A stretch of 60,314 bases of DNA, counting the filler, from Sphacelaria rigidula (Eukaryota), in the NCBI GenBank assembly GCA_964200075.2. It is 6 parts of 6 records of this genome, joined end to end, with 100 filler letters (N's around TTAATTAATTAA, not from the genome) between each part and the next. Parts side by side here need not be neighbours in the genome. Positions count along the whole stretch, not along the records: positions 1 to 9,970 come from CAXNAA020007391.1; 5 more parts are not named here. One strand, written 5' to 3'. The notes under the pieces were generated by a model that saw only the letters and a program-made list of their open reading frames with translations, was not told the DNA's origin and made no database searches. The translations under genes were made by a program, and so were the position numbers. How positions within the stretch are numbered: position 1 is the stretch's first letter; each line of letters begins with the position of its first letter. Shown here piece after piece: positions 42 to 50,385 of this stretch.

Positions 42-292
42 GTACTCATGATCATGCATGTCATAGTCATATGACTATTGACCTCGCATCCCTGCAAAGC
101 CGGAACGGACCACGCCGGGTTTTCGCCGCACCAGGTTCACACTCAATCACCAAGCGCGAAGCGCCGTGGTGTGTTCGGCGAGTCGCATGAAGGGTCAGCT
201 GCATCCTGCCAAGACTATTCGACCCGATGCGTTTCAATTATTTTGCACATGGACGGACGGTAGCCTCGAAGCAGCTGCTGGAAGGGAAGGAA
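42..292 (-). repeat. Poly-G/C-flanked dispersed repeat ending in ATGAGTAC
   Basis: Homologous to 10171-10520 and 29870-30109 (core cggcgcttcgcgcttggtgattga..gaaaacccg). Bounded by G runs on both sides. Confidence 0.8.
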
Positions 293-391
293 GGGGGGGG
301 GGGGGGGGGGGGAACGGTGGGGTGAAAGGGGGAGGAGAGGCAAGGAGTTAATAAGAATTTTTACGGGGGTAAACCACCCGANNNNNNNNNN

Positions 392-2235: not shown

Positions 2236-3126
2236 CCATTGTCAAAGTTGTGAAAAATATGTCATCATGTAACATAATGTGTAGCGGTAAAGGTTTCTTT
2301 CCGGGCGCCCTCTCCACCCAAGAACAGCATATATATCCGAAGCCCTAAATGTGGACCATCATCAGCTGGCGCCTGACTAGAGAGCACAACGGTCAGAGGG
2401 CTGACGAACATACTCTTTCGCGCTGCGCGCCCCGCGTCAAAACGATTCGCGCTCGAGGAGTCAGACCTCAGATGAGATTACAATTGGTACTCCACTTCAC
2501 GCATCTTTACCAGCAATACTCTTCAATGGACAACTGGTCATGTTGTATTACTGCTGCACGGATATTGGAGGTTCCATGATCACGTGTGTCACCGGAGGAG
2601 GAGGTGTCTCAGACACAGGCAAAGCATCAAAAACTGCGCACCAGATGACAAAGACACATCATTCTCCCGTAACCCCGGAGAGCGCGGCAAGTTCGGGGTA
2701 CCTACCGAAGTCTGTTTTTGCAGTCTCAACATGGCAACTGAAAAGTGTTGTGATGACCGGCCGAGGACAATAGACACTCTGAAGGTAGGGCTGACTAACC
2801 TGTGGAACATACTAGATCACCACCACACTTCGACTGCTAGACGGATGTGACCTACGGATCATCAAGCAGTATGCAAGAAAAACGCCGCCCAAGGCTACGG
2901 ACACGAACATAACACAGAAGATAGTAGATCACCACATAAAGATAAAAAAATGATGATGACCGGTCAAAAGACAAGATGTACTCTTAAGGTAGCGCTCGTA
3001 ATCTAGCACTACACGACTCCGGTCTTGACCGTTTTTACGGTACGCCTATATATCAATTTCAATACCTCTGCACATATACCTATACGTATATGTATGAATG
3101 TATGTATATATATTGTATTTTAGTAC

Positions 3127-3282
3127 CTGCAGATAGGGGGTTGTTGTCACGTCAAACCCTGCCTTCACCATGGCCAACGCCTCCCACAGGGGACCATACT
3201 GCTTCTTCCCCTTGGATCTTGCGGAGGCGCTGTTGTAGTACCGCACCAGCGCTTCCTCAGCCGCTCGTTGATCTCGCACCAT
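3127..3282 (-). CDS. RDR: RDR internal exon B
   Basis: cag acceptor and gtac donor, 156 nt, phase 0/0. Translates MVRDQRAAEEALVRYY...LAMVKAGFDVTTTPYLQ, matching the RDR 'ml.aGF....ePfl' segment and joining exons A and C in frame. Confidence 0.85.
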
Positions 3283-3489
3283 CTGTACAATGTGGAGGAG
3301 GGTGTACACGTTGGTTAGGGGAGGTGGTAGCCGGGAAGGGGCAGGAGAAGTATCAATGCCACCGCAATCAATTATACGTACCCCAGAGATGAAATTCGAC
3401 CAGCTTACGCCACATGACACTTCGTGACAACACACGCCAAATGAGATACCTGTACATGTGAGTGATACCTTGCTGGTCTCAATCTAGTG

Positions 3490-3983
3490 TTACACATTAG
3501 ACCCAGTGGAGATAGATGCAGATATTCCACCGTAGTCATTGAGGGCACTGCAGAGCTGTGTGGGCACACATATGTATAGGTCGTTTGTTACATACTCTAT
3601 TAATTTCTTCATGGCAGTCGAAACCACAGGATACTTCACTACCCAGCTCAGGCTTTCATCACCCATGGTTAGAAGGCAACCAAGTTACGCTCCATGAAGG
3701 TACATTGTACACCTAGGACTCTCCTCATATCTACAGATATCAACTGATCCACCAACTGACACATATCCACCATGAGCATGTCACTGATGGGAAATGTCCT
3801 AGCCTGCAACTCACTATGATGGGATGCAGATACTGCTGTCCAGATTAGCATGGTTGATTGTGTGAGTACATACTTCCATGCTGTCTTCGTCATAGAGTCA
3901 GTCTGGGTGGGTGTCATGCCTATTGAGAGTGCCACATCTACACCTTTCTCCTTCCCCACATACATGGATAACCGGGATGCCAC
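3490..3983 (-). pseudogene. Possible RNA polymerase beta'/RPB1-like remnant
   Basis: MRRVLGVQCTFMERNLV resembles R.nllGKRvdfsaRsVi. After a 1-nt frameshift come WVVKYPVVS (like vllnRqPtLh) and ICVPTQLCSALNDYGG (like I.l...vC..yNADFDGD). The catalytic motif is not intact and spacing is short. Confidence 0.3.
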
Positions 3984-4193
3984 CTCCTACCTATCCGGGT
4001 ATCCATGTTTTCAGACATCTTCGTGAGTAAGCCTATAGTAGTGTGCAGTGAACGTACTGAGTCTAAAAGTGTCCTGGGTACACCATGTCCATTTCCAGCT
4101 GTGTCATGTTGGTCATCAACATATTAGGTCCTTAACCAACACAGTCCATACCGGGGTAACGACTAACCTCATCTTCACCAGGATACCAGCATG

Positions 4194-5265
4194 CGTCCTA
4201 ATCCTAGTATATTTATGTTTGTCGTGGGTCATGTGGCAGGACTGCGTCAACCTGATCACACCGTAATCACACATCAGGTGTTCCATCAAGTGTAGCTCCG
4301 ATGGTAGATCGCGATTGATCACATGAATAGGGTACCTCCGGATGGTCTCTAGGTCTACGTCCGTATCTATCTGCGGTACACTAAGACCTAGCTCTATGAT
4401 CGACAGGCATGCCCACGCCTCCATTACTTGACCTGGAGTGCCCCTCTTAAGTCACAGCTGTGCTACCCATCACGAGTTCAAATGGCACCCTAGTGTCACC
4501 TTCCATCATATACGGCATCTGTGCGTCCTCTAGTACTGTGACCACACCCTTCTCACCCATGAGAGCACATAACTTATCACCTGCGGTAGCTGTGCATGCT
4601 CTCGACACGGCCAATCTCACTCTGTCGTATCCCAGGCGTACTGTTTGCTCCGCATATCCTGGCACTGGTATGCCCCACCATGAAATACCATTAGCAGGTA
4701 CGCTCGTACCCACTTCCCACCCCTTAGCCTTCTCCGTGGATAGTATTACAACCGCCTCTACCCTGTATGTGAACCTAGTCGCACAACCACGAGACATGAT
4801 GAACCCATCCTCGAAGGTCCCACCCAGTCGGCAGAAGACCACACGAACATTGAATCCCGGATATCCTTCGCAGTTCAGGTCACCACCATACAGTCTCTCG
4901 CCAGTACTAGACGCCAGTATCGACGATTCATGGTATTGGGGGTAGATGGTGGTCGACACTCTGTTGCATGGTCGGCTGACAGACTGGTTGAGGAAGTGTG
5001 AGCTTAGTCCCCTCCTAGCAGTGGGTAGGTATGGCAACACTAGCCTGGGGATGAAAGTAGTCGGTCTCTGTTGATCTGATGACACTGGGTAGGGTAGTTG
5101 TGTCAAGTTGTACAGTTGAACCCTGTCCCGCCTGGGCATTGTACTATTTACCCACCCCAAACCCTCTATATACGAAGTATCTCATCAAGCGCCCTGCATT
5201 GACAGACACCACTACCTCGTCATCCCCATGAACGTCCAGTGTAGGAGCGTTGTAGTCGTGTGACG
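4194..5265 (-). pseudogene. Divergent multisubunit RNA polymerase beta/RPB2-like subunit, central part (frameshifts at ~5161 and ~4449)
   Basis: RPB2 motifs in the expected order: EVVVSVNAGRLMR; LVLPYLPTARRGLSSHFLNQ; GFNVRVVFCRLGGTFEDGFIMS; GDKLCALMGEKGVV..MPY; ELVMGSTAVT/KRGTPGQVME; YGVIRLTQSCHMTHDKH. Confidence 0.88.
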
Positions 5266-6270
5266 GTTACCTATTTAGATCCACGAGTCCCTCCCTGATA
5301 CATGGGTACACCCAAAACTCCACTCCCACAATCACTAGCCTTGCAGATGCTGCTATCCCATCCACTCAGAAGCCTTGGGTAGAATGAATTCTGTGCATGA
5401 GTTTTCGAAAGGGACACCCATCTAAGATACTGGTGGATATGGTGAGTAGGAATCGTCACACTAGGTTTAGGACAGCCATAAAGTCCAGTTGTGCAGCAGT
5501 GAACACGGGTATTATGGTGGCGTCATATGACCCAGTACTGCCAATCATTATACTCCATACTACAGTGTCGACCATGGCACAGTCAGGTCACTGCCACATA
5601 GCATCTTTACGACACTATGGCTGAGGATATACACTGTTGTAAGAGATTACCCTGCATCCAGCGCGTCCATGATAAGTAGGTGCTATAGAGACTATCGCAT
5701 GATCACAACGTGTCATGTCAACGTGAAGTCTCCAAGTCTAGCAAAGGATGATGAGCGTGCTGTTGAGGAGAGGAGGAGACTTCTAGACCTTACCGATAGT
5801 AGCATCATGTAGGAGAGGTTCGTGGGTATTATAGCAGCGAAGGATCCATACAAGGCTGTGTCAGGGCAGAGAGATATATCCATCGATTCAACACACAATA
5901 GCAGATCAGTACAATCGCTACAATGCAACGCGTGGCAAGTGATCTATGTCTACTAAGTAAATGGGCAACCATGAGGACATACCCAATTAGGAACGGGGAC
6001 GCTAGATACCCATGCCTAACATGTGGTGTACCCCGTCTATCCCAAGCTACACATCTGTGTCAGCTGGTAATAGGGGAACATAGGCTGCATATATCCGGTG
6101 AACACCTGTTACGTCCAGAGAGGTATATATGTCAGGTGTTATCAACAAGTGCTCTCACACTGGACATGATAAGGAGGGTAGGGGATCTATATTGCAACAT
6201 AGAGTTGGATCGCACTAGTCCGGGTAGGATGATGGGTGCTGTTAAATAAAAGGAGGGTGGTGCTAAGGCT

Positions 6271-6852
6271 ATGAAGTTAGGGGTAAAATACACATGCCCC
6301 GTGATACAGATTGCATCCATGGTACTGCGAGGTAACTTCACTGCTGTGCCGTGCCCTGGGCCGTCTGTAGCCAACTCCACAGTGAGACAATCAGACATGG
6401 CTAGGGGTATACTGACGGTGGGCGGCAAGTGGAGGGATGTGACCAATACTAACACTTATGCACGCACGCAGGTTGAAGCTGGGAGTAAGATCATGGGTAG
6501 GGATGCAGAGACTGCTGTTCCACTCAATATGCCAGATGAAGTTGTGAGGTCTTCCACAATAGTGAGTATTACGGGTATGACGAAGGTATGTGCCACAATG
6601 GGGTGTCACAGAGTGTATGGTATGACAGTACAATCCCTAGCTGTCTTTTCCAGGATACTATTAACCCCATACAACAGAGATATATTGGCCCTAGTGCTAA
6701 CTGAGAGAATCAAGGTGACCGTGGAGCACGTTAGTGGTTGTTCTATTGTATTCACATACATGGGTACAGTCTCCTACACTGGTAATCCCTCGAAAATACC
6801 CATAGCCATATCTGAGTTCATGCAGGTTGTAAATATGGTGTTCATGAACAGT
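6271..6852 (+). pseudogene. Divergent TATA-binding protein (TBP)-like ORF, now fused in frame to the RPB2 tail
   Basis: ~194 aa with two TBP-repeat-like halves: PVIQIASMVLRGNF and MTVQSLAVFSRI (NiVa-like strands), plus SIVFTYMGTVSYTG..KIPIAISEFMQVV (resembles lIFsSGkvv.TG plus helix). Recognised by eye only. Confidence 0.5.
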
Positions 6853-7149
6853 GGTTCTGAGGGGTCACTCAACGTGTCGGGAGGTCGAGTTACAGGTGGT
6901 GGGGCATCGTTGGGTGAGATGGAGATGCAACAGCTGACTGGAAATGAGCTCGCCATGTGCTCATATGAGTTGCAACTGTGGGGGAATACTCTATCCACCA
7001 CATGGTGTTCCCATTGCCCCAGAGGTTTAGCGGCATGCACATGTGGGGATCAGAGTACAACAGGATCGATCAGACCGAGTAAGGGGCTACTAGATAGCAT
7101 AGTGACTATGATACATGCATCTGGACTGGACGTCGAGCTATTCAAATAA
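6853..7149 (+). pseudogene. RPB2-like C-terminal segment, on the opposite strand from the rest of the gene
   Basis: GRVTGGGASLGEMEMQQL matches RPB2 GRxxxGGxRxGEME. It is followed by a Cys cluster (WCSHC..ACTC) like the RPB2 zinc ribbon and a terminal helix ending SGLDVELFK*. Confidence 0.85.
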
Positions 7150-7678
7150 CACCTGACGCTACAGACAGCCCGGTCGTGGTCCCTATACCTTTGGTCACTG
7201 TGTAGATGGGTTCCTCATGGTCTATGGTAGTAAACCCTCTAGTTGTCACGACCCCTACAACTCAAACTTGAGTGAGTACTCTGATGCTACACCCACCACT
7301 ATCACTATTCGTCCAACCGTCGCCGCCCGATCCTATCACCCATGGTAGTTTGTCCATGAGTTCGGTTAGACTCCTCCTAGTAGTTAGGTCCAGAAGTAGC
7401 GTAGGCCACACACCCTGGAGAACCTTCCGTCATCGCACTTCAAAACGCTGTGACACGTCTAACCACCGGTAGGCAGTTGTACACACAGGCCCATGTCCAA
7501 CATAGAGCATGATGGTCTAGTGAGGGGATCTGGATCGTGGTGGTCTAAGTCCCTCAGCACTAGCACGCACATACCATTCATCAGCCTCTGAGCCACAGCC
7601 AACTGTGAGGACTGTTCGTCAGTATATCCTACATGCATGTAGTGCCTTGGAGTGATCGACGACGGTCTCGGGAAATAA

Positions 7679-8118
7679 ACAGCCGATCATCAAAATTGAG
7701 GATGGAGCTTTTCATTGAGGATGAAAACCCGGATGATTCAAATCTTCGTATCCACATCAAATCTTCGAAATATAGTTTCATTTCTTCACCTGCTGGTAGC
7801 TATTGACAACTGCTACACACTCGACCAATTTGGATCTCGATAACCGAAATATTGGAGTCGTAGGTGAAAAACAATTTTGGGGGAATTTAGATGATCCGAT
7901 CGGATCGCCGAAATTGCCTGAATTTGTTTTTACCCAGGGCATTAACGTTTCGGTCATTGAATTCCAAATTTGTATGTCGTGTAGTACTTGTCAATGGCTA
8001 CCAGTAGGTGAAGGAATATGACCATATTTCGAAGATTCGGTGTGGAGACCAAGGTTTCAATCCTCCGGGTTCTCATGCTCGATGGAAAGCTCCATCCTCA
8101 ATTTCGATGATCGGCTGT
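7679..8118. mobile_element. Fold-back MITE (long imperfect palindrome)
   Basis: Starts acagccgatcatcaaaattgaggatggagcttt and ends aaagctccatcctcaatttcgatgatcggctgt. Same family as 35890-36333. Confidence 0.85.
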
Positions 8119-9450
8119 GAATAGCCTGTCCTGTGATACTCCCTGCCTTACAGTGCGTGGTTCCCCATTAACAGGAAGTCCAGATACATCTACGAAGCTA
8201 CTCCGAGCAGGTAGTTACTTGTCATTTTCTCAATTCTACCGTGAAGCCAAGACCTGCTGCCCGCGGCGGCAGCAGCATGTCCCAAGCCGAGGAGTAGAAG
8301 CATCTCGTCAGGAAAACGGACTCCACAGATATGCGCGTATAGCGCTATCCTTGCACCGTCAACGAGGAGCTCCGCTTCAACGATAGAAAAGGCTTAACCG
8401 CTTGCTTATGCTCCCGGCTGGTCCCCCTCACCAACCGGATGGCGGCCTTGTAGTTGATCATGTTACCTCCAGTCTCCCTTCAAGCAAGCCTAGATCAGAC
8501 CCAACAATCTGCTCGACTCTACAGGTTCTTTCTGTGCGGTCGCCGTGAAAGCGTTATTTTTCGGATCTTCCTTCATTCCCTACCTGCTGCCCCCCTTCCC
8601 CTCTCCAGCGCATTACCGCAGAACATGGAATCCTTGGGCGTTCAACAAGAATTTAACAAAACGATTCACTCACCGTCTTGAGATTAACAGCAGAACTATT
8701 GTCAGGTTGTACAGTACAATGCCCGTGCGAGAATCTCCAACCGTTTTTTTTTGCCGGTGATGTGGCTCAATCCTATCAATCCGGCGAGTTTGGTCGGCGT
8801 TGCTATCCCAAGCTGTTTCTTTTTCGCTATTTCGCTCTAGAAAAAAATGAGACGAACTCTTATGGCCCCCGTTGAAAACAAAATCGCGCCCGATATCGAA
8901 CGATTTAAGGAACGTCGTTTTTGTCCAGGCTCGGGGATAGTATTGTGATGCATGAAAACAAGTCATTCAGGTAAATATTTTAAGTCGAGCGCAGACGCGA
9001 TGAAGACATTACCCAGCAGGAAGCACCACCACGCACATGTGTATGTAAGGCATAACAATAATTACATTCGGCTACCATTTAAAACCACACAAACGTGATC
9101 ACCAGGTACTGTCTTTCCGTGTTTTCTGAGAATCTAGCTCGCCTAGTATATAGCTACCGATGCTTACTCCTGCCTAGACATACCGGTTGCTATAATCCTG
9201 GCCTTTACGCAATACGCACATCTAGCAACCTACCAGCAGCTACATCTGCTTACAATCAAGTAACTAGCAGATCAGTGTACAATCGTCCTCGCGCAGCACA
9301 TCATGTTGAGCCAGTATACGCAGAAATTGACAGTAGCAGTCGATAGACGTGGTCGCCAGAGAATCCGCACAATCCAATAATCTATCTCTTCTCTACCAGT
9401 ACACTTTAGAGTAACTACACCAATGCAGTTATTGTTCACCCATCCATCAC

Positions 9451-9579
9451 CTCATTGAGACCATCCACCATCTCCGTGTAGAGAACTTCGATGCGTTTAT
9501 CCGGCACCCCCAGTGTGGTGAGGAGGGTGATGAGCTGTCGGTTCAGGTAGAACGGTAATCGCCGAGCGTATTGGATCAC
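9451..9579 (-). CDS. RDR: RNAi-type RNA-dependent RNA polymerase (RDR/QDE-1-like), internal exon A
   Basis: Polypyrimidine tract and cag acceptor. Translates VIQYARRLPFYLNRQLITLLTTLGVPDKRIEVLYTEMVDGLNE (RDR motif YLNRQxIxLLxxLGVPD). Donor gtgatg, 129 nt, phase 0/0. Confidence 0.9.
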
Positions 9580-9857
9580 CTGCACGTCGAGCGGAAGAGA
9601 GGGAGCGAGGGAGAGAGGGAGAGACTCTGCGCCCAACACAAAAAAAATAGAAACTGGAGCCAGCTACCCCACCGGTGGGAACCTTAACCCTTGGACCGCG
9701 AGGAGAGTAGTCCATCTGGATCATGCATCTTTTGTTTTCGAGTAAAATTTGATGCCGAGTCAACAGATGACCAACTCTCACCGTTAAAGGGATACCTTTC
9801 GTGCTTTCTACACTACTATACCTTTCAGGGGAGCGCTCCCCCCCCTCCCCCCCCCCC

Positions 9858-9970
9858 TCGTAGTGGCATGCTCCGTCTCGAAAGGGATGCGTGGTCAATG
9901 GTCAAATAACTAAGGCAAGCAACAAATGAGTACGCCCCCCCCTCGTAGTGGCATGCATGATCATGAGTAC
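9858..9970 (+). repeat. Nested short ATGAGTAC-ending repeats
   Basis: A 62-bp unit tccgtctcgaaagggatgcg...aacaaatgagtac lies between two copies of ccccccctcgtagtggcatgc. The same unit occurs at 41921-41982 and, reversed, at ~50420-50480. Confidence 0.8.
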
Positions 9971-10070
9971 NNNNNNNNNNNNNNNNNNNNNNNNNNNNNN
10001 NNNNNNNNNNNNNNTTAATTAATTAANNNNNNNNNNNNNNNNNNNNNNNNNNNNNNNNNNNNNNNNNNNN
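9971..10070. other. Artificial contig linker (also 20041-20140, 30110-30209, 40179-40278, 50248-50347)
   Basis: N44-TTAATTAATTAA-N44, with stops in all six frames. Pieces are 9970, 9970, 9969, 9969, 9969 and 9967 bp, i.e. length-sorted. Confidence 0.98.
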
Positions 10071-10170: not shown

Positions 10171-10520
10171 CTCATCCGCGCTCGCGCAAGGCGATGATTT
10201 CACTATGTAGTGTTCAAATGGTGAGACATCCATGAGCTAATGTAGCCTGCGGTTGTCTGTGGAAGTGGCCATACCAGAAAAAATGAATCAACTCATTCGA
10301 GGCTGTCATCCATAGGTAAGATAATCGGTACGGTTCAGGTCGAACAATCGTAGCAGGATGCAGCCCACTCCTCATGCGACCCGCCGAACACATGACGGCG
10401 CTTCGCGCTTGGTGATTGACTGCGAGCCTGGTCAGGCGAAAACCCGGCGTGCTCCGCCCCGGCTTTGTAGGGATGCGAGGTCAACGGCCTTATGACGACG
10501 GTACGCAAGATGATGAGTAC
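10171..10520 (+). repeat. Poly-C-flanked dispersed repeat ending in ATGAGTAC
   Basis: Preceded by a C run and ends gatgatgagtac-acccccc. Homologous to 42-292 and 29870-30109. Confidence 0.8.
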
Positions 10521-19526: not shown

Positions 19527-21535
19527 GTGATTGGACGGTGACAAGATTTTAGAAACATAGTCTTCGCCTGCAAGCTATATATCGTGTTTTTGAAATGGCG
19601 TCGTGCGACATATCGTGTCACAATTGTGGAAATCAGTTTGAAAATTCGATGTTGTTCCTGAAAGTCCGAGTTTGTTTTTTGTGGTGGGTGGTCACTTTCC
19701 TGCTATTCTTGTGTGCGGATGAATCATCGTGCAATTTCCGTGCTTCATGTGTGCATTTTTATTTTCCGTTGTTGACCCCAGCCATTTGCACGACAGCAAG
19801 TCATCTTCCAAGTTATGATTTGAGTGCAGAGTAATCTTCTCAAGTCGTTTCCGTCATTTTGTTTACTCATCTTGGTGGCCCATTTGAAGTGATTCAGAGG
19901 GTTCTGTGGTAGAGCAAAGTTCATCGGAAGAAATTTGAATCTCAGCGCTTTTTTTCTGGTGCGTAGGCCGGATGTTATGGCACACAGATTTTTGGCCCAC
20001 GGATTGTTCACTTTTGGGACGTTTGACCCACCTTTTGACCNNNNNNNNNNNNNNNNNNNNNNNNNNNNNNNNNNNNNNNNNNNNTTAATTAATTAANNNN
20101 NNNNNNNNNNNNNNNNNNNNNNNNNNNNNNNNNNNNNNNNGTGGAGCGCGCCCTCTTTTTTCTCTCTATTTAAAATATATTTTTTTTTTTTTTCCCCCCC
20201 CCCCCCCCCCTCATTAGTCTCCTCCGCTCTTTTCTCCCACATCTGTTTCTTCCTCTTCAGCGAGCGTTTCAGCTTTGTTTTATCTCGGGTGCGTCTGTTA
20301 TGTGAACACGGCTGGGTCTCTGGGGGTGTCAGTTAAAATGCCACAATGATTCAATCCTAGGGCAATCTCACGGAACAGTCATTATCCAACGGTGGATATT
20401 GGCGATGTTCCTGGCGTTGTGGAAGCCGTTACGCTTCCCAAAGACTAGGACGAACGCCTCAGTTTTCGGCTGTGCATGCAGAGGCCGTCCCTTCCTGCTA
20501 GAGGCATTATTACATTTTTATACAAGTAATGGAATAGGAGTAGCAAGAAGATGAGTCGGGCTCAGCTAGTTCTCCCCCCCCCCCCCCAGCTTTACATGGT
20601 TGAATCCTTCTGGATATATTGAACCCTATTGTGAATGACTCTGTAAACCTCCGTGAGCACAGCTCGAACCCAGACCATTACTGAGGACCCTGGGACAATC
20701 AACTTGAGGGGGTTTAACCCTTGGATTACGAGGGCAGTCCATCTGGAATATGCATATTTTTTACAAGTGGAAATGATGTCGATTCATCAGATGACCTACT
20801 CTCGCTGTCTAGGGGTCAACCCTTTTGACCGCGAGGGTAGGTCACCTGCTGAATCGGCAATACTCACTTGAAACAAGTATGCGCGATCTAGGTGGACTAC
20901 CCGCACCACCGTGCAAGGGTGAAGCAAACTCATTGTGAGCTTTGCATGGATAAACCCTACTGGACTTGTTGAACCCTGACTCCGTAACCCTAGCCGTAGC
21001 CCTGAACAACCCATCGCATGCTGAGGACCCTAGGGCAAATTAGTGTATGGCGAGGACTTGAGCAAAACCTGCGTGAAGTCCACCGAACAAATTAGTTTTG
21101 ACCGAGTTTTTTTCTTCAATATCGGAAGCCTCTGAGGCCTCTGGGGGGGGGGGGGGGGGGGGGCCGCGCCCCCTTCACGGTACGTTAGGCTCCCGTGGCA
21201 GGGNNNNNNNNNNTTTTCTTTTTTGGGTGGTTTTGCTGGGGTTGTTGTTTGTTTTTGTGTCCTTGCCTGCTTCCTGTAAGTGTAGACCTCCTGGCTTGCG
21301 ACGGGGATTGCCGGTGGGGCGCGAGTCTGACCCTGGTGCCATGCTGCTACTGTATCTCATACCCCTCCTCCTAGCAGGGAATTCCGGTGCTGCTGCCGAA
21401 TCGACTCGTGCACGTGAATATCAACTCGGACAGTGAAAACGCAACGTGCTCCAATGTGCCACCTGGGGACGTGGCTAGGCAACGGGGCCAGAAAGGGGCG
21501 ACGGTGCCGCCAGCGGATTGTACAGACCGTTCGTT

Positions 21536-30109: not shown

Positions 30110-30760
30110 NNNNNNNNNNNNNNNNNNNNNNNNNNNNNNNNNNNNNNNNNNNNTTAATTAATTAANNNNNNNNNNNNNNNNNNNNNNNNNNNNNNNNNNN
30201 NNNNNNNNNGGATGACTCATTATTTTTTACGCGGACTGAATACATCATGCACTAGCCGGCACGCGTCCTTTTGGCCTGGTGCCCTGAGCGTGGTCGCCAC
30301 CTATCGGCGTTGCATTGTGCACGAGATGCACCAATGAAGAGCACACTTTTCAGACCACCCCCACGCGCAAAATCGTCACTTTCTCCGCCAGAAATCTACA
30401 CCGACGATCCCGCCTTGAGCAAAGCTTGCCACCGATGCCACGCGCTGGGCCGGTACTCCCTTGTGTCGGGCCCGCCGCTCGTGTGAACTGTGTCTACTTC
30501 ACGGCTGATATCAGCCGAATGCCTGTCATATGGTTCTTCCATGCGGGCATTCCGGTATTGGATTGTTTATTACTTCTATTTTCGCGCAAGACTGTAATTA
30601 ATATCATTTTTTCAATGTTAACAATTTCCGCTGGTTTAACCTACAACGACTGTATAACCAAACGCAAGGAAGACAATAGGTGTTGAATGATACTTCCCCT
30701 CTCCGAACCACACCCAGCACTCTCTCCCTCTCACGGAATTTCTTAATTATTGTGGAACAG

Positions 30761-40178: not shown

Positions 40179-40966
40179 NNNNNNNNNNNNNNNNNNNNNN
40201 NNNNNNNNNNNNNNNNNNNNNNTTAATTAATTAANNNNNNNNNNNNNNNNNNNNNNNNNNNNNNNNNNNNNNNNNNNNATTCACTGATTGACCGCTTTTC
40301 ACTCTCAATCGTATCATCTACTCCCAATCTCACGAAAACACTGTTCACCGTAGGTTGCATAAGATACCACACCCTCAGTAGCGATTTTCGAAGCTCGATT
40401 ACTCCACAACGAAGAGGGTGCCGACATCAAACGACACGATTAAAAAAAGTCTCGGCGAGATGGTTGCAACGCCGCCCAGTTCAGCCCCGGCATCGTTTCT
40501 GGTGAGGAGTAAATGAGCTTCGAAAATCAGTCTCGGGGATGTGGTATCTTGAGCAACCTACAACGGTAAGTGAGAGTGCCAGTGTGCCAATGTGCCGCTC
40601 GGTCTTGTACACTGAGGCCATACCAGAACAGCCGTATCGTATCGAACATCGATTCTCGATACGTATTGTGTCACCTTCGGAATATCGATAAAAATATCGG
40701 TATCGCCGGTTGTGGGTCAATACTCAATATCGTATCTAACTTTATTCTCGGTGCGATATGCAACCCTGAGTTTGAGTGAAGTCGTCGCAGCAAGATAAGC
40801 GGCACAACTGATGACAGTTCAAGTAAATCATGAACCACGTATCTTTTTCACAGAGTACCTCTTCGGTGGCAAATGTTAGTATGCTTGCCTAAAGTGACGT
40901 TTTGAGTAGGATATTGCTGGAGTAGATCTGTTGCAATGATTATAGAAAGACTCTCCAGCAGAGTAC

Positions 40967-41426: not shown

Positions 41427-42617
41427 ATGGCTCAAGCGGCGGTAGCGCCGCTGGTGTTGGGTGAGCCACTACAGCCGCCAAAGTATGGTGAAGTATGGAC
41501 CGAGGAAGCATCACAGATTTTTTCGCAAGATACCTTGAATATATGCAGCGTCTGAGTCTTGCTAATGGACAAGGCATTAATTATACGGCATGAGAGAGTT
41601 AGTGTAGGACAGCTCATTCCTGTCTACATTCCCCGCTGCTTCGAAGACATGCACAAGGACGGTCGGGCTATGACCCCCGAAGAATTGCTAGATGCTGTGA
41701 AGCAGCATGCGGGGTATACTACAACCGGTGGAAAGCGTGACGCTACGCGGGCTGCAGCAGACCTGCGTGGGGCACTTACAATGAAGCAAAGCGATGGAAA
41801 AGCCGTGAAAGATCGTGCTACGATGATTAGCTCAGATATGTAACGGTTTTTTGCACAGAATCTGATGGTGCAAGCCATGTACCTCGCGATGGACAGGAGT
41901 TGGTTGTCTGGCCCGGCCGCTCCGTCTCGAAAGGGATGCGTGGTCAATGGTCAAACGACTAAGGCAAGCAACAAATGAGTACGAGTCGGTTTCCATAGCT
42001 TTGGTGGACGGGATTTCGCCCCCCGAGTTCAAGGCGTATGTTAGAAGTGTACTAACGTATGTATGTTGACGGCTGGAACAAAAAACCCGACGGTGGTGTT
42101 CAAAATAATATTTGAGGCGGCCGACAAGTGGAAGTGCATTGAAGCACATGGCCGGCGCGACTCTGCAACAAGTGCAGGTGGTATGCGCCGGAAACACCAA
42201 CAGCAACAGAATCAGCAGCCGTCTTCGCGAGAATCGTCCACTCGCGTGTGTTACAACTGCGGCGACACCGGACATATGATCAAGGACTGCTCCAAGCCTC
42301 GCGCTCAAGGCGCGGCACAGGGCAATGCACGAGATTTATCAGGATCTCAGGGTGGTCGTCACGGTGGACGGGGCCGTGCCAATCAGGGACGCGGGCGCGG
42401 CGTCCGCGGTAGCAAGCAATCGGCGGCGGATGATGGTTCCCCCGCTGCTGTTTCTTTCACTACGTCATCAGGTGGTGACTCTGGATCTTATGGCTTGTCC
42501 GTAGCGGGGCGGACAGTGTACATAGGAAATGCAAATACTTCGGTGGGGAGTGCCTGGGTAAATAGCTCGCAACCCCTCGGCCAGCCATCTGCATATTCTT
42601 CGACTTGGTCTGGTTGA
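41427..42617 (+). pseudogene. gag: gag, interrupted by stops, frameshifts and a ~62-bp insertion
   Basis: Zinc knuckle CYNCGDTGHMIKDC followed by an RG-rich tail. Confidence 0.85.
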
Positions 42618-42638
42618 ACCGACGATTCGCAGCTATCG

Positions 42639-45400
42639 ATGCCAAGTGCTGGAGGGCAGCCCTGGCGTCAGGTGACTCTTGGGACAGAACCGGGCTCTTC
42701 GGCAGGCGTGGTACCTGTCGATCGCAAGGCTGAATGCTTACGCGCAGATTTAGCCTTGCCTAGTTCTGTAGGTTCCTTCATGGCCCGCGTTATTCTGGAT
42801 TCTGGGTCCGCGCTCACGTCGATCGGTGTGGGGCTGTTAGAGCAATTGTCCTCGCAGTTTGGCGGCGCTCAGCTTCAGATTCCATTCGAAAACGGACCGC
42901 AAACGGCACAGACCGCCACGGGTGCTCCCGTGACGGGTACACACAAGACGGTGCCAATTACTGTTAGCGTGCGTTCGCCGTGTGGGGCTGTGCAGTTGCA
43001 GCCCATTACTTTCGCTGTCATGCCCGGTAGGGGCAACGTGGTTCTATTTGGGATGGCGACAATGAAGGAGCTTGGGATTGATTTATATCCGCTGGCGTTG
43101 GAGAAGTCACGTCCGCGTGCTGTGCCGGTGCAAACCGGCGTGGAAAACCCCAGTTACTTTGCTGCAAGGCGTGTGATCGTATCCGTACGGTCATTCCAGA
43201 GCGCCAATGAGGAGGAGGTTCCTGTTGATGAAGCGGTAGAGCGCTTGGTTGAATCGGGGGCCGGAGAGATTCACGGACCCAGCAGAGGAGAGAGGTTCAC
43301 GAAAATGTGCGCTTGAGGATAGTGTACGGCAGGCCGAGCAGAAGGGCCTTAGGGCCGATGGCGCACATTGTCTGCGCGATAAGTTGGCTCGCCGCGTAGA
43401 TATTATTCGTCGCGCGCTGCGTGGTGATCCGCCAGCGCGCGTGGAGCCGATTAAGGAGGCTGTGAAGGCCAAGCCTCGCCGCTGCGATCCGGTGAAGACC
43501 GTGTGATTTGCTTCATGCATCGCAGTTTTGGTGGCATTTGGTTTTTTGCTAGGGATATTCCGGCTGTGTGGACGAGTCCGGCGATAGCGGTGCCGAAGAG
43601 GGACACATTCCGTTTGGTCAGCGACCATCAGGCGGTGAACGCGCAAGTGGAACAGTCTTCGGGGGTGATGCCGAGCCAAGAAGACATGCGGGACTTGCTC
43701 GGAGCCCAAGAACAATATTGGTATGTCAGTAAACACATTCCTGGAGAGCGCATTTTCTGGGGAGATTTGTTGTCTCGCTTGGTGAAGGTTTCTACCGTGC
43801 CTATTAGTTATGTTGCCGTGTACAGCCCGTGTGATGCCGATGATTCACTGCCCTCGTTAGATGTCATTCGTACCGCGCAGCGCAAAACAATCGGCGACGG
43901 TGTTCATTCTTTTTCTACGACTTTCGGCCAAGCTACTATGACTAACGATGGTTTGCTTCGTGTGCGTGTTGGCAGTCGTGATGTTGTGTGGATTCCGTCG
44001 GATGATGAGGCTCTACAAACTCGCTTGATGGTGTGCGTTCACATGCGGTCGGCTGGTCACCGTAGCGTGGCGCCGACTCTGTTTCGTTTGAAAGTATACT
44101 GTGCGTGGCCTCACATAGATTCCCACGTTCGCGAGTTCGTTCGACAGTGTTTGCATTGTGTAGACATTCGTGTTGGTGAGATTGTACCTCGCCCGTATGG
44201 CGATACTGTACATGGTACTGCGCCAGGTGAAGTTGTTCACTTCGATTCTCTCTCCGTCGGAAGTAGCGGACCTGAAGGTGCTAATGGTCTGCCTGAGGAT
44301 GATGGCTTTCAGTGTATTTTGGCCATCATGGTTGACTTGTCCAATTTCGTTTGCTTGGAGCGGACCGAGGCTTGCACCGCCGAGGGTACGGCTAAGCACT
44401 TACTCAATTGGTGCAAGACTTTGGGGGTGCCGCGTGTTTGGGTTGGCGATACCGCCACGCACTTCAAGAATCGAGTGATCGCGCAGCTGAGCGATGCACT
44501 CAAGGTGCAACACCAATTTGCTGTTGCGTATACCCCTTGGTCGAATGGTGCTTATGAACGCATGGTGAAAGAGGTGATTCGTGCGTTGCGGTCTAATCTT
44601 TCGGAACAGCGACGGCCGGTGTCTGAATGAGTTGATGTTTTGCCAGCCGCTCAGTGGGCGTTAAATACTTCTTTTCGTGAACGCTACCGTAACAATCCGT
44701 ATTGTGTGATGTTTGGGCGTGCGCAGCGTATAGCGTTTTCCGCGCTGGTTTCTGTCACTGGCGGCGAGTGGAACGTCGATGTCATGGATGCTGATTCGTA
44801 GCGTGACAAGGTTCGAGGCGTGGTTGTTGAGCAAGTACGGTTTTGTAACGGAGTGCGAGCTGCTGTCGCGGTGTCTCGCGAAACCAAACGCAAGCTTGCG
44901 CAGGGCCAGGTTGTGTTGCCCAAGTTTGCAGTTGGCGATTTCGTCTTGTATGCCCGTGTTCGGAGGCAAGGTGTGACGCCAAAGTTGATGTCCACGGGAC
45001 AGGTCCGTGGCGAGAGGTCGGAGCCGATAACGCTCACACGTGTATTCGGTGCAGAACATTGTTTCTGGCGCCGTGCACTCCGCCCATGTCGCTCGTTTAC
45101 GTTTCTATGCTGACTCGCAGTTGCACATCACTGCGGAACTAAAAGATGTATTCCAGCATTCGTATGCTCAAGGTGAATGTCGGATGAATGCTTTGGTGCA
45201 CGTCGCTGAGGATGATAATGGTGATATCATTGTTTTGGTCGATTGGGAAGGGTTCAGTGCTGAAGAACGTACGTGGGAGTGGAGTTTCTTCGCAAGATTC
45301 ATTCTTCTGCGCCTGAATTTGTTCTGAAGGAACTGCGTAAAATGCGGTTGACTCGGGCGCTGACCAATAAATTTGCGTCGGGGTATGGTATTTCTTTGTG
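42639..45400 (+). pseudogene. pol: pol: protease, truncated RT, integrase, chromodomain
   Basis: VILDSGSALT (protease); WTSPAIAVPK..FRLVSDHQAVN (RT start); HIPGERIFWGDLLSR (RNase H end); H..GH..CLHC and VHFD/GDTATHF/NGAYER (integrase); VLVDWEGFSAEERTWE (chromodomain). Confidence 0.92.
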
Positions 45401-49600: not shown

Positions 49601-50385
49601 GCTGTTGGGCATTGTGTGGGACAAGAAACTCCACTGTCTGTAGAACGCTATTTCTAGTGCTGCGCACTCTGCATCAGCGACAACCCACGGCGTGAAGAAC
49701 GCGCCGCGACCTACTCCCACTACTGTATCCTTCCGTATTGACAGGCAATGCTGATTATCTCCGGTAGGTCCGTGAAATTGGAGGGCAGGAGCAGGAGGAC
49801 GTTCGCCCATCATTGTGCGGTTGTCAAGCCCAGAATTGTGCTTCATTAATCCTGTTGAACACTGCTTTTGCAGCCCTTCTCTGTCGTTTTATGCCCGAAA
49901 AACGGTCTAGGTGGATGTTGACGCCCTGGTCTCAACGAGTAGAGCAAGTCATTCTATAGCGTCAACATCCGTCCACAGCTTTGTGAGGGTCGGACACTTA
50001 ATTGATGATTCGTCTGAAAATCTCTGGATTTTAGTGTAGTATTTGTTTCTGATCGTTCGAATCAAAGCTCGAACGGCTCTATTAGACTTGGCCTCGGAGG
50101 TGGCGCTGTAGTTCGTGAGTCTTGTTCTGGAAAGATTTTGAGAATCTTGAATATTGATACATCGTGCAGCTTTTTTATGTTGTTGTTGTTGTTGTTGTTG
50201 TTGTTGTCTTCACATTAAAAGCCGTTCCGATATCTGCGCGGTACATTNNNNNNNNNNNNNNNNNNNNNNNNNNNNNNNNNNNNNNNNNNNNTTAATTAAT
50301 TAANNNNNNNNNNNNNNNNNNNNNNNNNNNNNNNNNNNNNNNNNNNNTGGTGGGCCGTGAGTGTCGTGGGTGTGGGGGGGGGGGT

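Follow-up and report, generated by a model that had tools for sequence, protein, structure and literature searches.

We analyzed a 60,314-nt stretch of DNA from the alga Sphacelaria rigidula (the window), in which the remains of two genes without introns, R and A, lie inside a host RDR gene. In agreement with the initial annotation, RdRP-domain exons of this gene, both on the minus strand, are found at 9436-9663 (profile positions 230-278) and at 1449-1706 (profile positions 320-363). R belongs to the beta/Rpb2 family of RNA polymerase subunits, and its copy in the window is degenerate; A, about 540 aa long, carries a zinc ribbon. The window coordinates of all R and A pieces were obtained by tblastn, and residue numbers given for R refer to its relative P0018. 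The features of the locus are as follows.

3484-4115, no strand assigned: left flank, from the last recognisable A codon to the nearest host-like ORF
4116-4184, minus strand: A tail, the last 22 codons and the stop (ILVKMRLVVTPVWTVLVKDLIC*), joined in frame to the end of the R fragment
4185-6864, no strand assigned: inversion of 2,680 bp with codon-exact junctions at both ends
4185-4451, minus strand: R after a frameshift near 4452, with KRGTPGQVME and HMTHDKHKYTR; residues 505-594 correspond to 4451-4182, in another frame
4447-5181, minus strand: R middle part, an open stretch of 244 codons with FEDGFIMS and the degenerate catalytic-loop motif GDKLCALMGEKGVV
5201-5338, minus strand: most upstream surviving piece of R (residues 216-261, tblastn E 3e-5), with an in-frame stop
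5421-5927, plus strand: A N-terminal part, split among three frames; in-frame stop near 5810
5971-6864, plus strand: A zinc ribbon and conserved C-terminal module (CLTCGV at 6013-6030, GRDAETAV at 6496-6519)
6865-7149, plus strand: R C-terminal part, similar to Rpb2 domain 7, with GGGASLGEME and a four-Cys cluster; stop codon at 7147-7149
7150-7677, no strand assigned: right flank, reaching a highly repeated palindromic element (repeat boundary 7677/7678)

The middle part of R, in which residues 269-504 map to 5172-4453, matches Pfam Rpb2_6 marginally (23.5 bits, cut-off 23.4; E 3.7e-5) and PHROG 3295 'RNA polymerase beta subunit' with an E of 1.2e-5. The C-terminal part is 51% identical to residues 600-688 (E 3e-21), and its nearest clusters in the protein atlas are all Rpb2_6/7 (score 0.87). 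It is joined in frame behind an A fragment, within an open 299-codon ORF (6250-7149). From base composition, ORFs of 244 and 299 codons would be expected by chance 2.5e-3 and 1.6e-4 times in the region, respectively, and the window pieces match relatives at tblastn E values of 7e-60 and 3e-21. The signal thus lies well above chance expectation.

The six RPB2/beta motifs reported initially all exist. Four are on the minus strand: FEDGFIMS (4792-4815), GDKLCALMGEKGVV (4540-4581; relatives read GDKFxxxHGQKGVV), KRGTPGQVME (4419-4448) and HMTHDK (4218-4235). The last two, GGGASLGEME (6895-6924) and the Cys cluster (7006-7044), are on the plus strand about 2.7 kb off, so that the motifs do not form the single colinear series in one gene that had been proposed. 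The domain 7 motif and the Cys cluster, on the opposite strand from domain 6 in the window, are contiguous with it in relatives, and four of these (P0007, P0008, P0014 and P0018) have all the motifs in one protein, in Rpb2 order. The R fragment stops at the left junction, past codon GGT (4187-4185), and the C-terminal module of A ends at the right junction, past codon GGG (6862-6864). Across the R junction the spacing YTR-12 aa-GRV, and across the A junction the spacing F-20 aa-W, equal those of intact relatives; the exchange of the 3' ends is thus reciprocal and length-exact. This codon-exact swap indicates a 2,680-bp inversion (4185-6864), which is why the C-terminal part of R is on the other strand. 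The inversion left the first part of R followed by the A tail, and the first part of A followed by the C-terminal domain of R. It also shows that motif-based readings call for care, as the ordered motifs had been joined by eye across strands.

The inverted arrangement is real: positions 3766-7704 are recovered as one 3,939-nt contig in sequencing runs from two studies (0 and 10 differences). The insert is therefore present in samples of both studies, and in one run it has single-copy depth, equal to that of its flanks (83.9 versus 82.8 and 69.8). The short-read contigs are interrupted at 3766-3778 and again at the repeat at 7677-8118, and none of those listed bridges the insert to the host flanks; integration thus rests on the window assembly together with the equal depth. 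No terminal inverted repeats bounding the insert were found. The left flank has no family in Pfam or PHROGs and no tblastn match from any relative, and the right flank has nothing in Pfam.

R and A are both decayed. By tblastn no R homology was found upstream of the 5201-5338 piece, which indicates that about 215 N-terminal codons are missing; since homology begins at the equivalent of residue 216, the N-terminal protrusion, lobe and fork are not covered. One stop and one frameshift interrupt what is left of R. Its catalytic loop reads GDKLCALMGEKG, with the His and the Gln substituted, and an intact GDKxxxxHGQKG is absent, whereas GDKFxxxHGQKG is kept in all four relatives that cover this site. 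A is interrupted by three frame changes and two stops, one of them at 6247-6249. The window copy is unable to make a polymerase. Hence, although the cluster is without introns as initially described, it is broken by frameshifts and stops, and a locus with only one polymerase subunit gene, truncated and broken, is not the minimal transcription machinery that had been suggested.

The neighbour of R had been taken for a TBP-like ORF. This assignment is rejected, as none of the 37 ORFs of at least 50 aa overlapping 3400-7700 matches TBP in Pfam at E <= 1; the neighbour is the zinc-ribbon protein A, for which no match was found in Pfam, solved structures or the protein atlas. Its N-terminal part corresponds to residues 34-76, 78-182 and 177-201 of the relative P0003 (frames +3, +2 and +3; 51-68% identity). 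Its C-terminal module matches residues 219-516 of P0003 with 55% identity and P0004, P0005 and P0006 with about 32%, and the A tail at 4116-4184 matches the C-terminal tails of these same four proteins.

A phmmer search of ORF 6250-7149 against 1.84e9 proteins gave 16 matches, which reflect its composite nature. Five are of A type and cover only ORF residues 1-205 (best 57% identity), nine are of R type and lie only within residues 186-299, one is a near-identical copy and the remaining one is an unrelated bacterial repeat protein. The nine R-type matches support the C-terminal part of R through ORF residues 203-299. Relatives come from marine and other environmental samples and none is named. 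The source contig is 9,502 nt long for both P0004 and P0018, and 5,057 nt long for both P0005 and P0007, sameness of contig being judged in both cases by equal size; A and R thus seem to be neighbours, divergently transcribed, in relatives too. The clade to which the window belongs is otherwise known only from short contigs carrying A and R, and roughly two dozen R family members are present in a total of some 15 billion predicted proteins.

Judged by its sequence, R is a true beta/Rpb2 homologue, compact and highly divergent. A match to an Rpb2 profile, suggested in the initial annotation as a check, was obtained for the window ORF (see above) and more strongly for P0018 (Rpb2_6 1e-12, Rpb2_7 1.3e-4 and, weakly, the fork domain Rpb2_3 at 0.012), P0007 (Rpb2_6 4.9e-11) and P0014 (Rpb2_6 1.3e-11). 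P0018 has no Pfam match to Rpb2 domains 1, 2, 4 or 5. The Rpb2_7 scores of R relatives (18.4-31.6 bits) are under the cut-off of 32.1, but HMMER aligns this segment to archaeal subunit B, and P0018 matches archaeal RNAP B at E 6.5e-12. In cellular second-largest subunits (Rpo2, Rpb2, RPC2, NRPD2) the motifs follow one another as in R, the hybrid-binding domain first and the C-terminal four-Cys ribbon last; the R family profile matches these subunits at E 4e-21 to 1e-16, in an alignment spanning GDKFxxxHGQKG, HM..DK and GG.R.GEME. They differ in length, being about 1,100-1,250 aa compared with 688 aa for P0018, the longest protein of the window-type search, and 833 aa for the longest relative, described below; the window copy is a broken fragment. 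Little sequence precedes the fork motif of R, so that the protrusion and lobe domains seem reduced. Two structure models were poor (mean pLDDT 41 and 42), and Foldseek aligned R to cellular subunits with 12-17% identity.

The R family profile scores higher against archaeal/eukaryotic than against bacterial subunits. The non-virion RNAP beta subunit of jumbo phages (PHROG 3295) resembles R in that both the window ORF and the R protein of a distant relative match it, and there is a weak alignment of the EDGF region with one phage subunit of solved structure; R differs by its C-terminal four-Cys ribbon and its location in a eukaryotic genome. Among solved structures, where the cellular subunits matched are about 1,100-1,200 aa long, the best match is to plant Pol IV/V subunit 2 (4e-21, against 1.4e-20 for archaeal Rpo2). 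Together with the position of the fossil within an RDR gene, this best match would fit a decayed host paralogue, for instance an alga-specific silencing polymerase like plant Pol IV/V, functionally close to RDR. The margin over archaeal Rpo2 is only 2 bits, however, and R and A lack introns inside an intron-rich host gene and are broken and inverted. In addition, an intact relative of R adjoins DNA polymerase and helicase-like genes on a compact contig. A host paralogue, already disfavoured, is therefore the most improbable of the origins considered here, and the initial view of a foreign, intronless relic with a very divergent two-barrel RNAP subunit holds; R does not belong to the host, organellar or bacterial RNAP genes.

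The contig in question, L001, is a gene-dense marine metagenome contig of 16,452 nt with nine tightly packed large ORFs. It encodes an intact, distant R relative of 833 aa, which aligns with P0018 at E 4e-56 and matches PHROG 3295 at 5e-11, and a beta'-like protein of 590 aa (Rpb1_2 7.4e-9, motif AADFDGD). It also encodes a family B DNA polymerase (Pfam DNA_pol_B, PF00136, 6.5e-21), a primase-helicase-like P-loop protein (PHROGs 2.3e-5) and, by a weak match, a TFIIS-type zinc ribbon. The window clade is tied to L001 through R alone, at 26-33% identity: the L001 ORF in the position of A shows no detectable relation to A, with an hhalign probability of 0.6% and, in a separate comparison, rank 85 of 1,596 scored sequences, nearly all from 2,000 shuffles. 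In the 60-kb window, tblastn detected neither a beta'-like partner nor other L001 genes or hallmark genes. The search of the neighbours for viral genes proposed earlier yielded a family B polymerase, on L001; genes for a capsid, for packaging or for an integrase were identified neither in the window nor on L001, and the insert lacks terminal inverted repeats.

The absence of a visible capsid gene, and the fact that the window clade is known from short A and R contigs only, would suit a non-viral selfish element with its own RNA polymerase, such as a linear plasmid of the yeast cytoplasmic type or a large transposon. Yeast virus-like elements of the pGKL2 type are small linear DNAs that likewise have a much reduced, non-canonical two-barrel RNAP (PMC6211774). 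On L001, though, beta-like and beta'-like subunits are encoded by two distinct ORFs at a distance of 3.3 kb, the DNA polymerase matches PF00136, and the insert in the window is not bounded by terminal inverted repeats. In yeast virus-like elements, a beta/beta' fusion RNAP lies next to a protein-primed DNA polymerase. We consequently regard a selfish element as improbable, and the linear-plasmid-like lineage envisaged initially is not supported.

The polymerase, primase-helicase-like protein, two RNAP subunits and TFIIS-type ribbon of L001 resemble the core gene set of giant viruses. Moreover, in BFVD the best matches of a low-confidence R model are RPB2 of pithovirus-like, poxvirus and mimivirid origin (E 4e-10 to 1e-6), and like the poxvirus rpo132, R would be a virus-encoded subunit of archaeal/eukaryotic type. 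The fragment could then derive from a known kind of Nucleocytoviricota, such as a phaeovirus relative or another alga-integrated lineage, decayed past easy recognition. Against this, R is much shorter and more divergent (688-833 aa, versus about 1,100-1,200 aa for most giant-virus RPB2 matches in BFVD); intact R relatives score no more than 48 and 31 bits with Rpb2_6, and R has three weak Pfam domain matches rather than the standard set. Its profile scores vaccinia rpo132 (3.6e-16) no better than archaeal/eukaryotic subunits, no relative was found in IMG/VR, none of the 13 matches of one homologue search is virus-named, and neither a capsid gene nor a packaging ATPase was recognised. Algal phycodnaviruses depend on host transcription, according to a review (PMC2919709). 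A known giant-virus kind is accordingly quite unlikely.

A baculovirus/nudivirus-like virus (Naldaviricetes) would be in keeping with the size of R, as the LEF-8 entries found among the BFVD matches are 846-1,047 aa long. The same review describes LEF-8 and LEF-9 as rapidly evolving offshoots of Rpb2 and Rpb1, confined to the catalytic core and far below cellular size, with a TFIIS-like partner, LEF-5 (PMC2919709). At E <= 0.1, Pfam, in which LEF-8 and LEF-9 are both present, gave neither family for P0018 or for the L001 proteins. With the low-confidence model, LEF-8 ranks 28th or below in BFVD (E 6.5e-5 or weaker), behind 27 matches of which the named ones are all giant-virus RPB2. The group is known from arthropods, whereas the host here is an alga, and we consider this origin very unlikely.

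Taken together, the insert is quite probably an inert endogenous fragment whose source, a DNA virus-like lineage with a multisubunit RNA polymerase of its own, is apparently undescribed. As no capsid, packaging or integrase gene is seen in the window or on L001, the term 'virus' is based on gene content and compactness only, and we infer the viral origin, like the time and manner of the insertion, indirectly. In the living element, to judge from the intact relative, R and a small beta'-like subunit would have formed a two-barrel core transcribing the element's genes. A fragment of this DNA would have landed in the RDR intron. In the window copy, alongside the inversion, R has lost about 215 N-terminal codons and the His and Gln of its catalytic loop, and both genes carry stops and frameshifts. 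The inserted DNA presumably leaves with the intron. That the lineage might be undescribed, as suggested initially, agrees with its unnamed relatives and with the literature, in which no description of such an RNA-polymerase-encoding lineage was found.

Endogenous viral fragments are common. A broader reading, which we put forward tentatively and hold to be possible rather than probable, is that R, A and L001-type contigs all belong to a deep DNA virus lineage, as yet undescribed, with algae and marine protists as hosts. Its polymerase would be among the most compact of eukaryotic viruses (beta-like subunit of ~690-830 aa, beta'-like subunit of ~590 aa), the fossil would be the first link to a host for otherwise orphan metagenomic sequence, and A may, with a new fold, serve this lineage specifically as a transcription factor or polymerase partner. 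If this lineage is real, it would add a further independent core-only RNA polymerase of eukaryotic viruses, besides the enzymes known from baculoviruses and from yeast linear elements; it would tie marine metagenome contigs without a known host to an alga, and it would make the conserved neighbour gene A a candidate polymerase cofactor.

Two open stretches in the region, of 244 and 299 codons, have lengths that are expected 2.5e-3 and 1.6e-4 times, respectively, from its base composition. Their positions, and those of the motifs of R, a compact divergent homologue of the polymerase subunit beta/Rpb2, are as follows.

Stop-to-stop open stretches and motifs of R
4447-5181, minus strand: open stretch of 244 codons
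6250-7149, plus strand: open stretch of 299 codons
4792-4815, minus strand: FEDGFIMS
4540-4581, minus strand: GDKLCALMGEKGVV (catalytic-loop motif)
4419-4448, minus strand: KRGTPGQVME, past a frameshift near 4452
4218-4235, minus strand: HMTHDK, past the frameshift near 4452
6895-6924, plus strand: GGGASLGEME
7006-7044, plus strand: Cys cluster

All of the ordered RPB2/beta motifs described in the initial annotation are thus present, but they are split over two strands and form no single colinear gene. The TBP-like ORF also described there was not recovered, as none of the 37 ORFs of the region resembles TBP. When the window was analyzed by itself, the 244-codon ORF reached 23.5 bits with Pfam Rpb2_6, which is marginal with respect to the cut-off of 23.4, and a match at 1.2e-5 was obtained with PHROG 3295, annotated as "RNA polymerase beta subunit". 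The only family signal of the plus-strand 299-codon ORF came from its protein-atlas neighbours, all of them Rpb2_6/7 clusters, with a score of 0.87 that is below the level of more than a lead. Single window ORFs gave only E > 0.3 against solved structures, and a word-indexed protein search with the 244-aa ORF returned only a 99% copy among proteins of near length and nothing among longer ones.

Using the 299-aa ORF as query, a phmmer search of 1.84 billion representative proteins gave 16 matches. One was a 99% copy (P0002) and another an unrelated bacterial repeat protein (P0010). Five were restricted to residues 1-205 (P0003, P0004, P0005, P0006 and P0017; identity over these residues 57% for P0003 and ~32% for P0004, P0005 and P0006), and the other nine to the C-terminal part, within residues 186-299. 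Because the relatives match either one module or the other, these alignments show the 299-codon ORF to be chimeric, built from two modules that are unrelated to each other. The first module belongs to a protein that we name A, which carries a Cys-x2-Cys zinc ribbon and the conserved blocks CPxPSVASST, GRxAETAV and TYTGTxSYTGxP, and whose C-terminus is always a tail like LLAMKRVVKPVWTVSVRDIV. The second belongs to R. Every motif described in the initial annotation is found in one single protein in P0007, P0008, P0014 and P0018 (the longest R relative of the window clade, 688 aa), and in an alignment of R relatives their order is NYEDSFLMS, GDKFxxxHGQKGVV, IKRxTxSQLxEAWAG, CHMTYDKYQYTR and GRVAGGGVxLGEME, with the Cys cluster last. 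The tblastn matches of the two proteins to the window are as follows.

Matches of P0018 (R) and P0003 (A) in the window
5338-5201, minus strand: R, P0018 residues 216-261, with a stop
5172-4453, minus strand: R, P0018 residues 269-504
4451-4182, minus strand: R, P0018 residues 505-594, in another frame
6883-7146, plus strand: R, P0018 residues 600-688
5421-5927, plus strand: A, P0003 residues 34-201, in three frames, with one stop
5971-6861, plus strand: A, P0003 residues 219-516, with a stop at 6247-6249

The minus-strand ORF at 4116-4451 reads CHMTHDKHKYTRIRTHAG and then ILVKMRLVVTPVWTVLVKDLIC followed by a stop, that is, R and then the tail of A, and in the plus-strand ORF FMNSGSEG is followed by SLNVSGGRVTGGGASLGEME, that is, A is joined to the C-terminal domain of R. 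The spacing from YTR to GRV in R is 12 residues in the window, the same as in P0007, P0008, P0009, P0014 and P0018, and that from the conserved F to W in A is 20 residues, the same as in P0003. The minus-strand junction comes after codon GGT (4187-4185), and the plus-strand one after codon GGG (6862-6864). The exact native spacing at both exchanges, together with these codon junctions, shows that the 2,680 bp segment 4185-6864 is inverted with respect to the relatives, in which A and R are divergent neighbours. No R homology was detected upstream of 5338 by tblastn of the relatives and A starts ~80 bp away, so that ~215 N-terminal R codons are missing in the window, including those for the fork motif present in P0018. 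The His and Gln of the catalytic-loop motif are also gone. R and A are both dead genes in the window, and the locus as a whole is dead, functionless DNA.

To window positions 2500-9900 we aligned the contigs of four public sequencing runs, which belong to two studies. In one run per study, positions 3766-7704 are covered by one 3,939-nt contig that is colinear with the window and spans both junctions, with 0 differences in one of these runs and 10 in the other; smaller contigs cover the region in the remaining two runs. The depth of the insert was 83.9, compared to 82.8 and 69.8 for the flanks, in one run, and 20.5, compared to 25.2 and 34.3, in the other. Differences were about as dense inside (10 in 3,939) as outside (2 in 1,279 and 2 in 1,745) the insert. 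Because colinear contigs were obtained in two studies, with equal depth and similar difference density, we conclude that the inversion is genuine and that the samples share the insert, which behaves like single-copy DNA of the host. No RNA samples were among the listed carriers of the region. In agreement with the placement of the insert in an intron of the host RNA-dependent RNA polymerase gene (RDR), RdRP-domain exons lie on either side of the region on the minus strand (9436-9663 and 1449-1706). No terminal repeats were found around the insert. None of the contigs listed spans 3766-3778 or the palindromic repeat at 7677-8118, and thus the link of the insert to the host exons rests on the window assembly and the equal depth.

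A short part of the left flank, 3735-3981, probably occurs twice in the genome: in three runs its contig depth is ~2x that of the adjoining sequence (152 versus 84 in run X1), and unitigs break at 3766-3778. Adjoining the right end of the insert, where short-read contigs stop, is a palindromic MITE-like element (7679-8118; two 198-nt arms, 79% complementary, 44 nt apart) with a summed contig depth of ~1e5-1e6, compared to ~80 for single-copy DNA, and therefore present in very large copy number. A second very abundant dispersed repeat (9663-9900, depth ~1e5-1e6) has similar translated stretches at 75-350 (plus), 10214-10480 (minus) and 41832-42000 (minus). Such stretches, with poly-G/poly-C tracts beside them, occupy the two ends of the first 10 kb in inverted orientation and are present once more near 41.9 kb. 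A long AAT/ATT-type microsatellite (1230-1400), with poly-Asn, poly-Ile and poly-Leu frames, adjoins an RDR exon. Elsewhere, a decayed LTR-retrotransposon remnant (42045-44630, plus strand) contains domains of gag (CCHC zinc knuckle, 1.7e-7), of an aspartyl protease (1.6e-3) and of an integrase (zinc-binding, 1.7e-8; core, 2.2e-3), with no reverse transcriptase seen between them. Runs of N (382-391, 9971-10070, 20041-20140, 21204-21213, 30110-30209, 40179-40278 and 50248-50347) occur at ~10-kb intervals, mostly as two 44-N blocks 12 bases apart, and have the look of masks or joints and not of a biological feature.

The assignment of R to RNA polymerase was borne out by its intact relative P0018, which matched Pfam Rpb2_6 at 1e-12, Rpb2_7 at 1.3e-4 and Rpb2_3 at 0.012, and archaeal RNAP subunit B at 6.5e-12. 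R also has a C-terminal four-Cys cluster. A profile of six R family members was scored against solved structures, giving 4e-21 for plant Pol IV/V subunit 2, 1.4e-20 for archaeal Rpo2, 4.5e-19 for Pol III, ~1e-16 for Pol II, 3.6e-16 for vaccinia rpo132 and 1e-15 or weaker for bacterial beta. On account of these profile scores, R groups with archaeal and eukaryotic subunits, close to no single one. The AlphaFold2 model of P0018 is poor (mean pLDDT 42). In Foldseek, its best 50 PDB matches were all second-largest RNAP subunits, and among predicted viral structures giant-virus RPB2 came first and baculovirus/nudivirus LEF-8 28th or lower; with a TM of ~0.18 and a sequence-driven alignment, both sets of matches are weak. 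A gave no Pfam family, no profile match to solved structures (best E 0.16) and no protein-atlas match, and its AlphaFold2 model (mean pLDDT 41) has moderate confidence in the zinc-ribbon region only.

Cluster look-up showed that most relatives are unnamed proteins from assemblies of public sequencing runs; P0014, a JGI protein, is labelled "DNA-directed RNA polymerase beta subunit". P0004 (A) and P0018 (R) each come from a 9,502-nt contig, and P0005 (A) and P0007 (R) each from a 5,057-nt contig; these shared source contig sizes suggest that the A-R pairing is conserved. A scan of JGI metagenome contigs gave one locus, the 16,452-nt marine contig L001, which has nine large ORFs on alternating strands, almost without spacers. 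Its R protein (833 aa) aligns to P0018 residues 21-686 with 26% identity (E 4e-56). Other recognizable L001 products are as follows.

Further proteins of L001
Beta'-like protein, 590 aa: Rpb1 domain 2 (7.4e-9), AADFDGD; alignment to archaeal A' over the GK.G.R and DFDGD segments
Family B DNA polymerase, 952 aa: 6.5e-21, YGDTDS
Protein with a TFIIS-type ribbon: weak match
P-loop protein: PHROGs 2.3e-5, similar to phage primases in their helicase part; against solved structures P-loop noise only

No family could be recognized for five of the nine large ORFs, and several of the proteins have long Ser/Thr-rich or acidic tails. Opposite-strand neighbours touch or overlap by a few bases (557-aa ORF start at 5111, R start at 5110). 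The 557-aa ORF lies head-to-head with R, the position of A in the window clade. Its homology to A was unsupported both by hhalign (probability 0.6%) and by a shuffle control, in which the real protein ranked 85th of 1,596 scored sequences, nearly all from 2,000 shuffles; a relationship of A to the L001 beta'-like protein was likewise unsupported (hhalign probability 0.2%). No other L001 genes were detected by tblastn in the 60-kb window. A profile search of 5.8 billion clusters gave 13 matches, namely L001 R, ten other unnamed proteins from metagenomes or run assemblies (with identities reaching 49% over 635 aa), a bacterial RpoB (2.7e-4) and a 141-aa fragment. Named viruses were absent from these 13 matches, and no relative was found in IMG/VR.

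Most simply, these results can be read as the capture of a short stretch of a DNA virus-like genome, carrying the A-R pair, in the RDR intron of the host, followed by decay through loss of the 5' part of R, four frame changes, three stops and one clean inversion. As judged from predicted proteins, the source lineage would encode a two-subunit polymerase core in strongly reduced form, as well as a DNA polymerase of its own and a helicase-like protein. In gene content it is similar to giant viruses, but its proteins are much shorter and diverge more. The evolutionary pattern is the one that a review of non-canonical two-barrel polymerases describes for LEF-8/LEF-9 of baculoviruses and for phage enzymes (PMC2919709). 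Mriyaviruses, known small relatives of giant viruses, are stated to be without DNA and RNA polymerase (PMC11253617). A search of full-text literature found no published description of such a lineage. Genes for a capsid or for packaging were not identified, so that we only infer the viral nature, and a plasmid-like or transposon-like element as the source is the main alternative to capture from a virus-like genome. The core of the interpretation in the initial annotation, that the insert is the relic of an undescribed element which encoded a divergent RNA polymerase of its own, is supported. The locus is of value because it points to a rare polymerase family without a name and links that family to a host.
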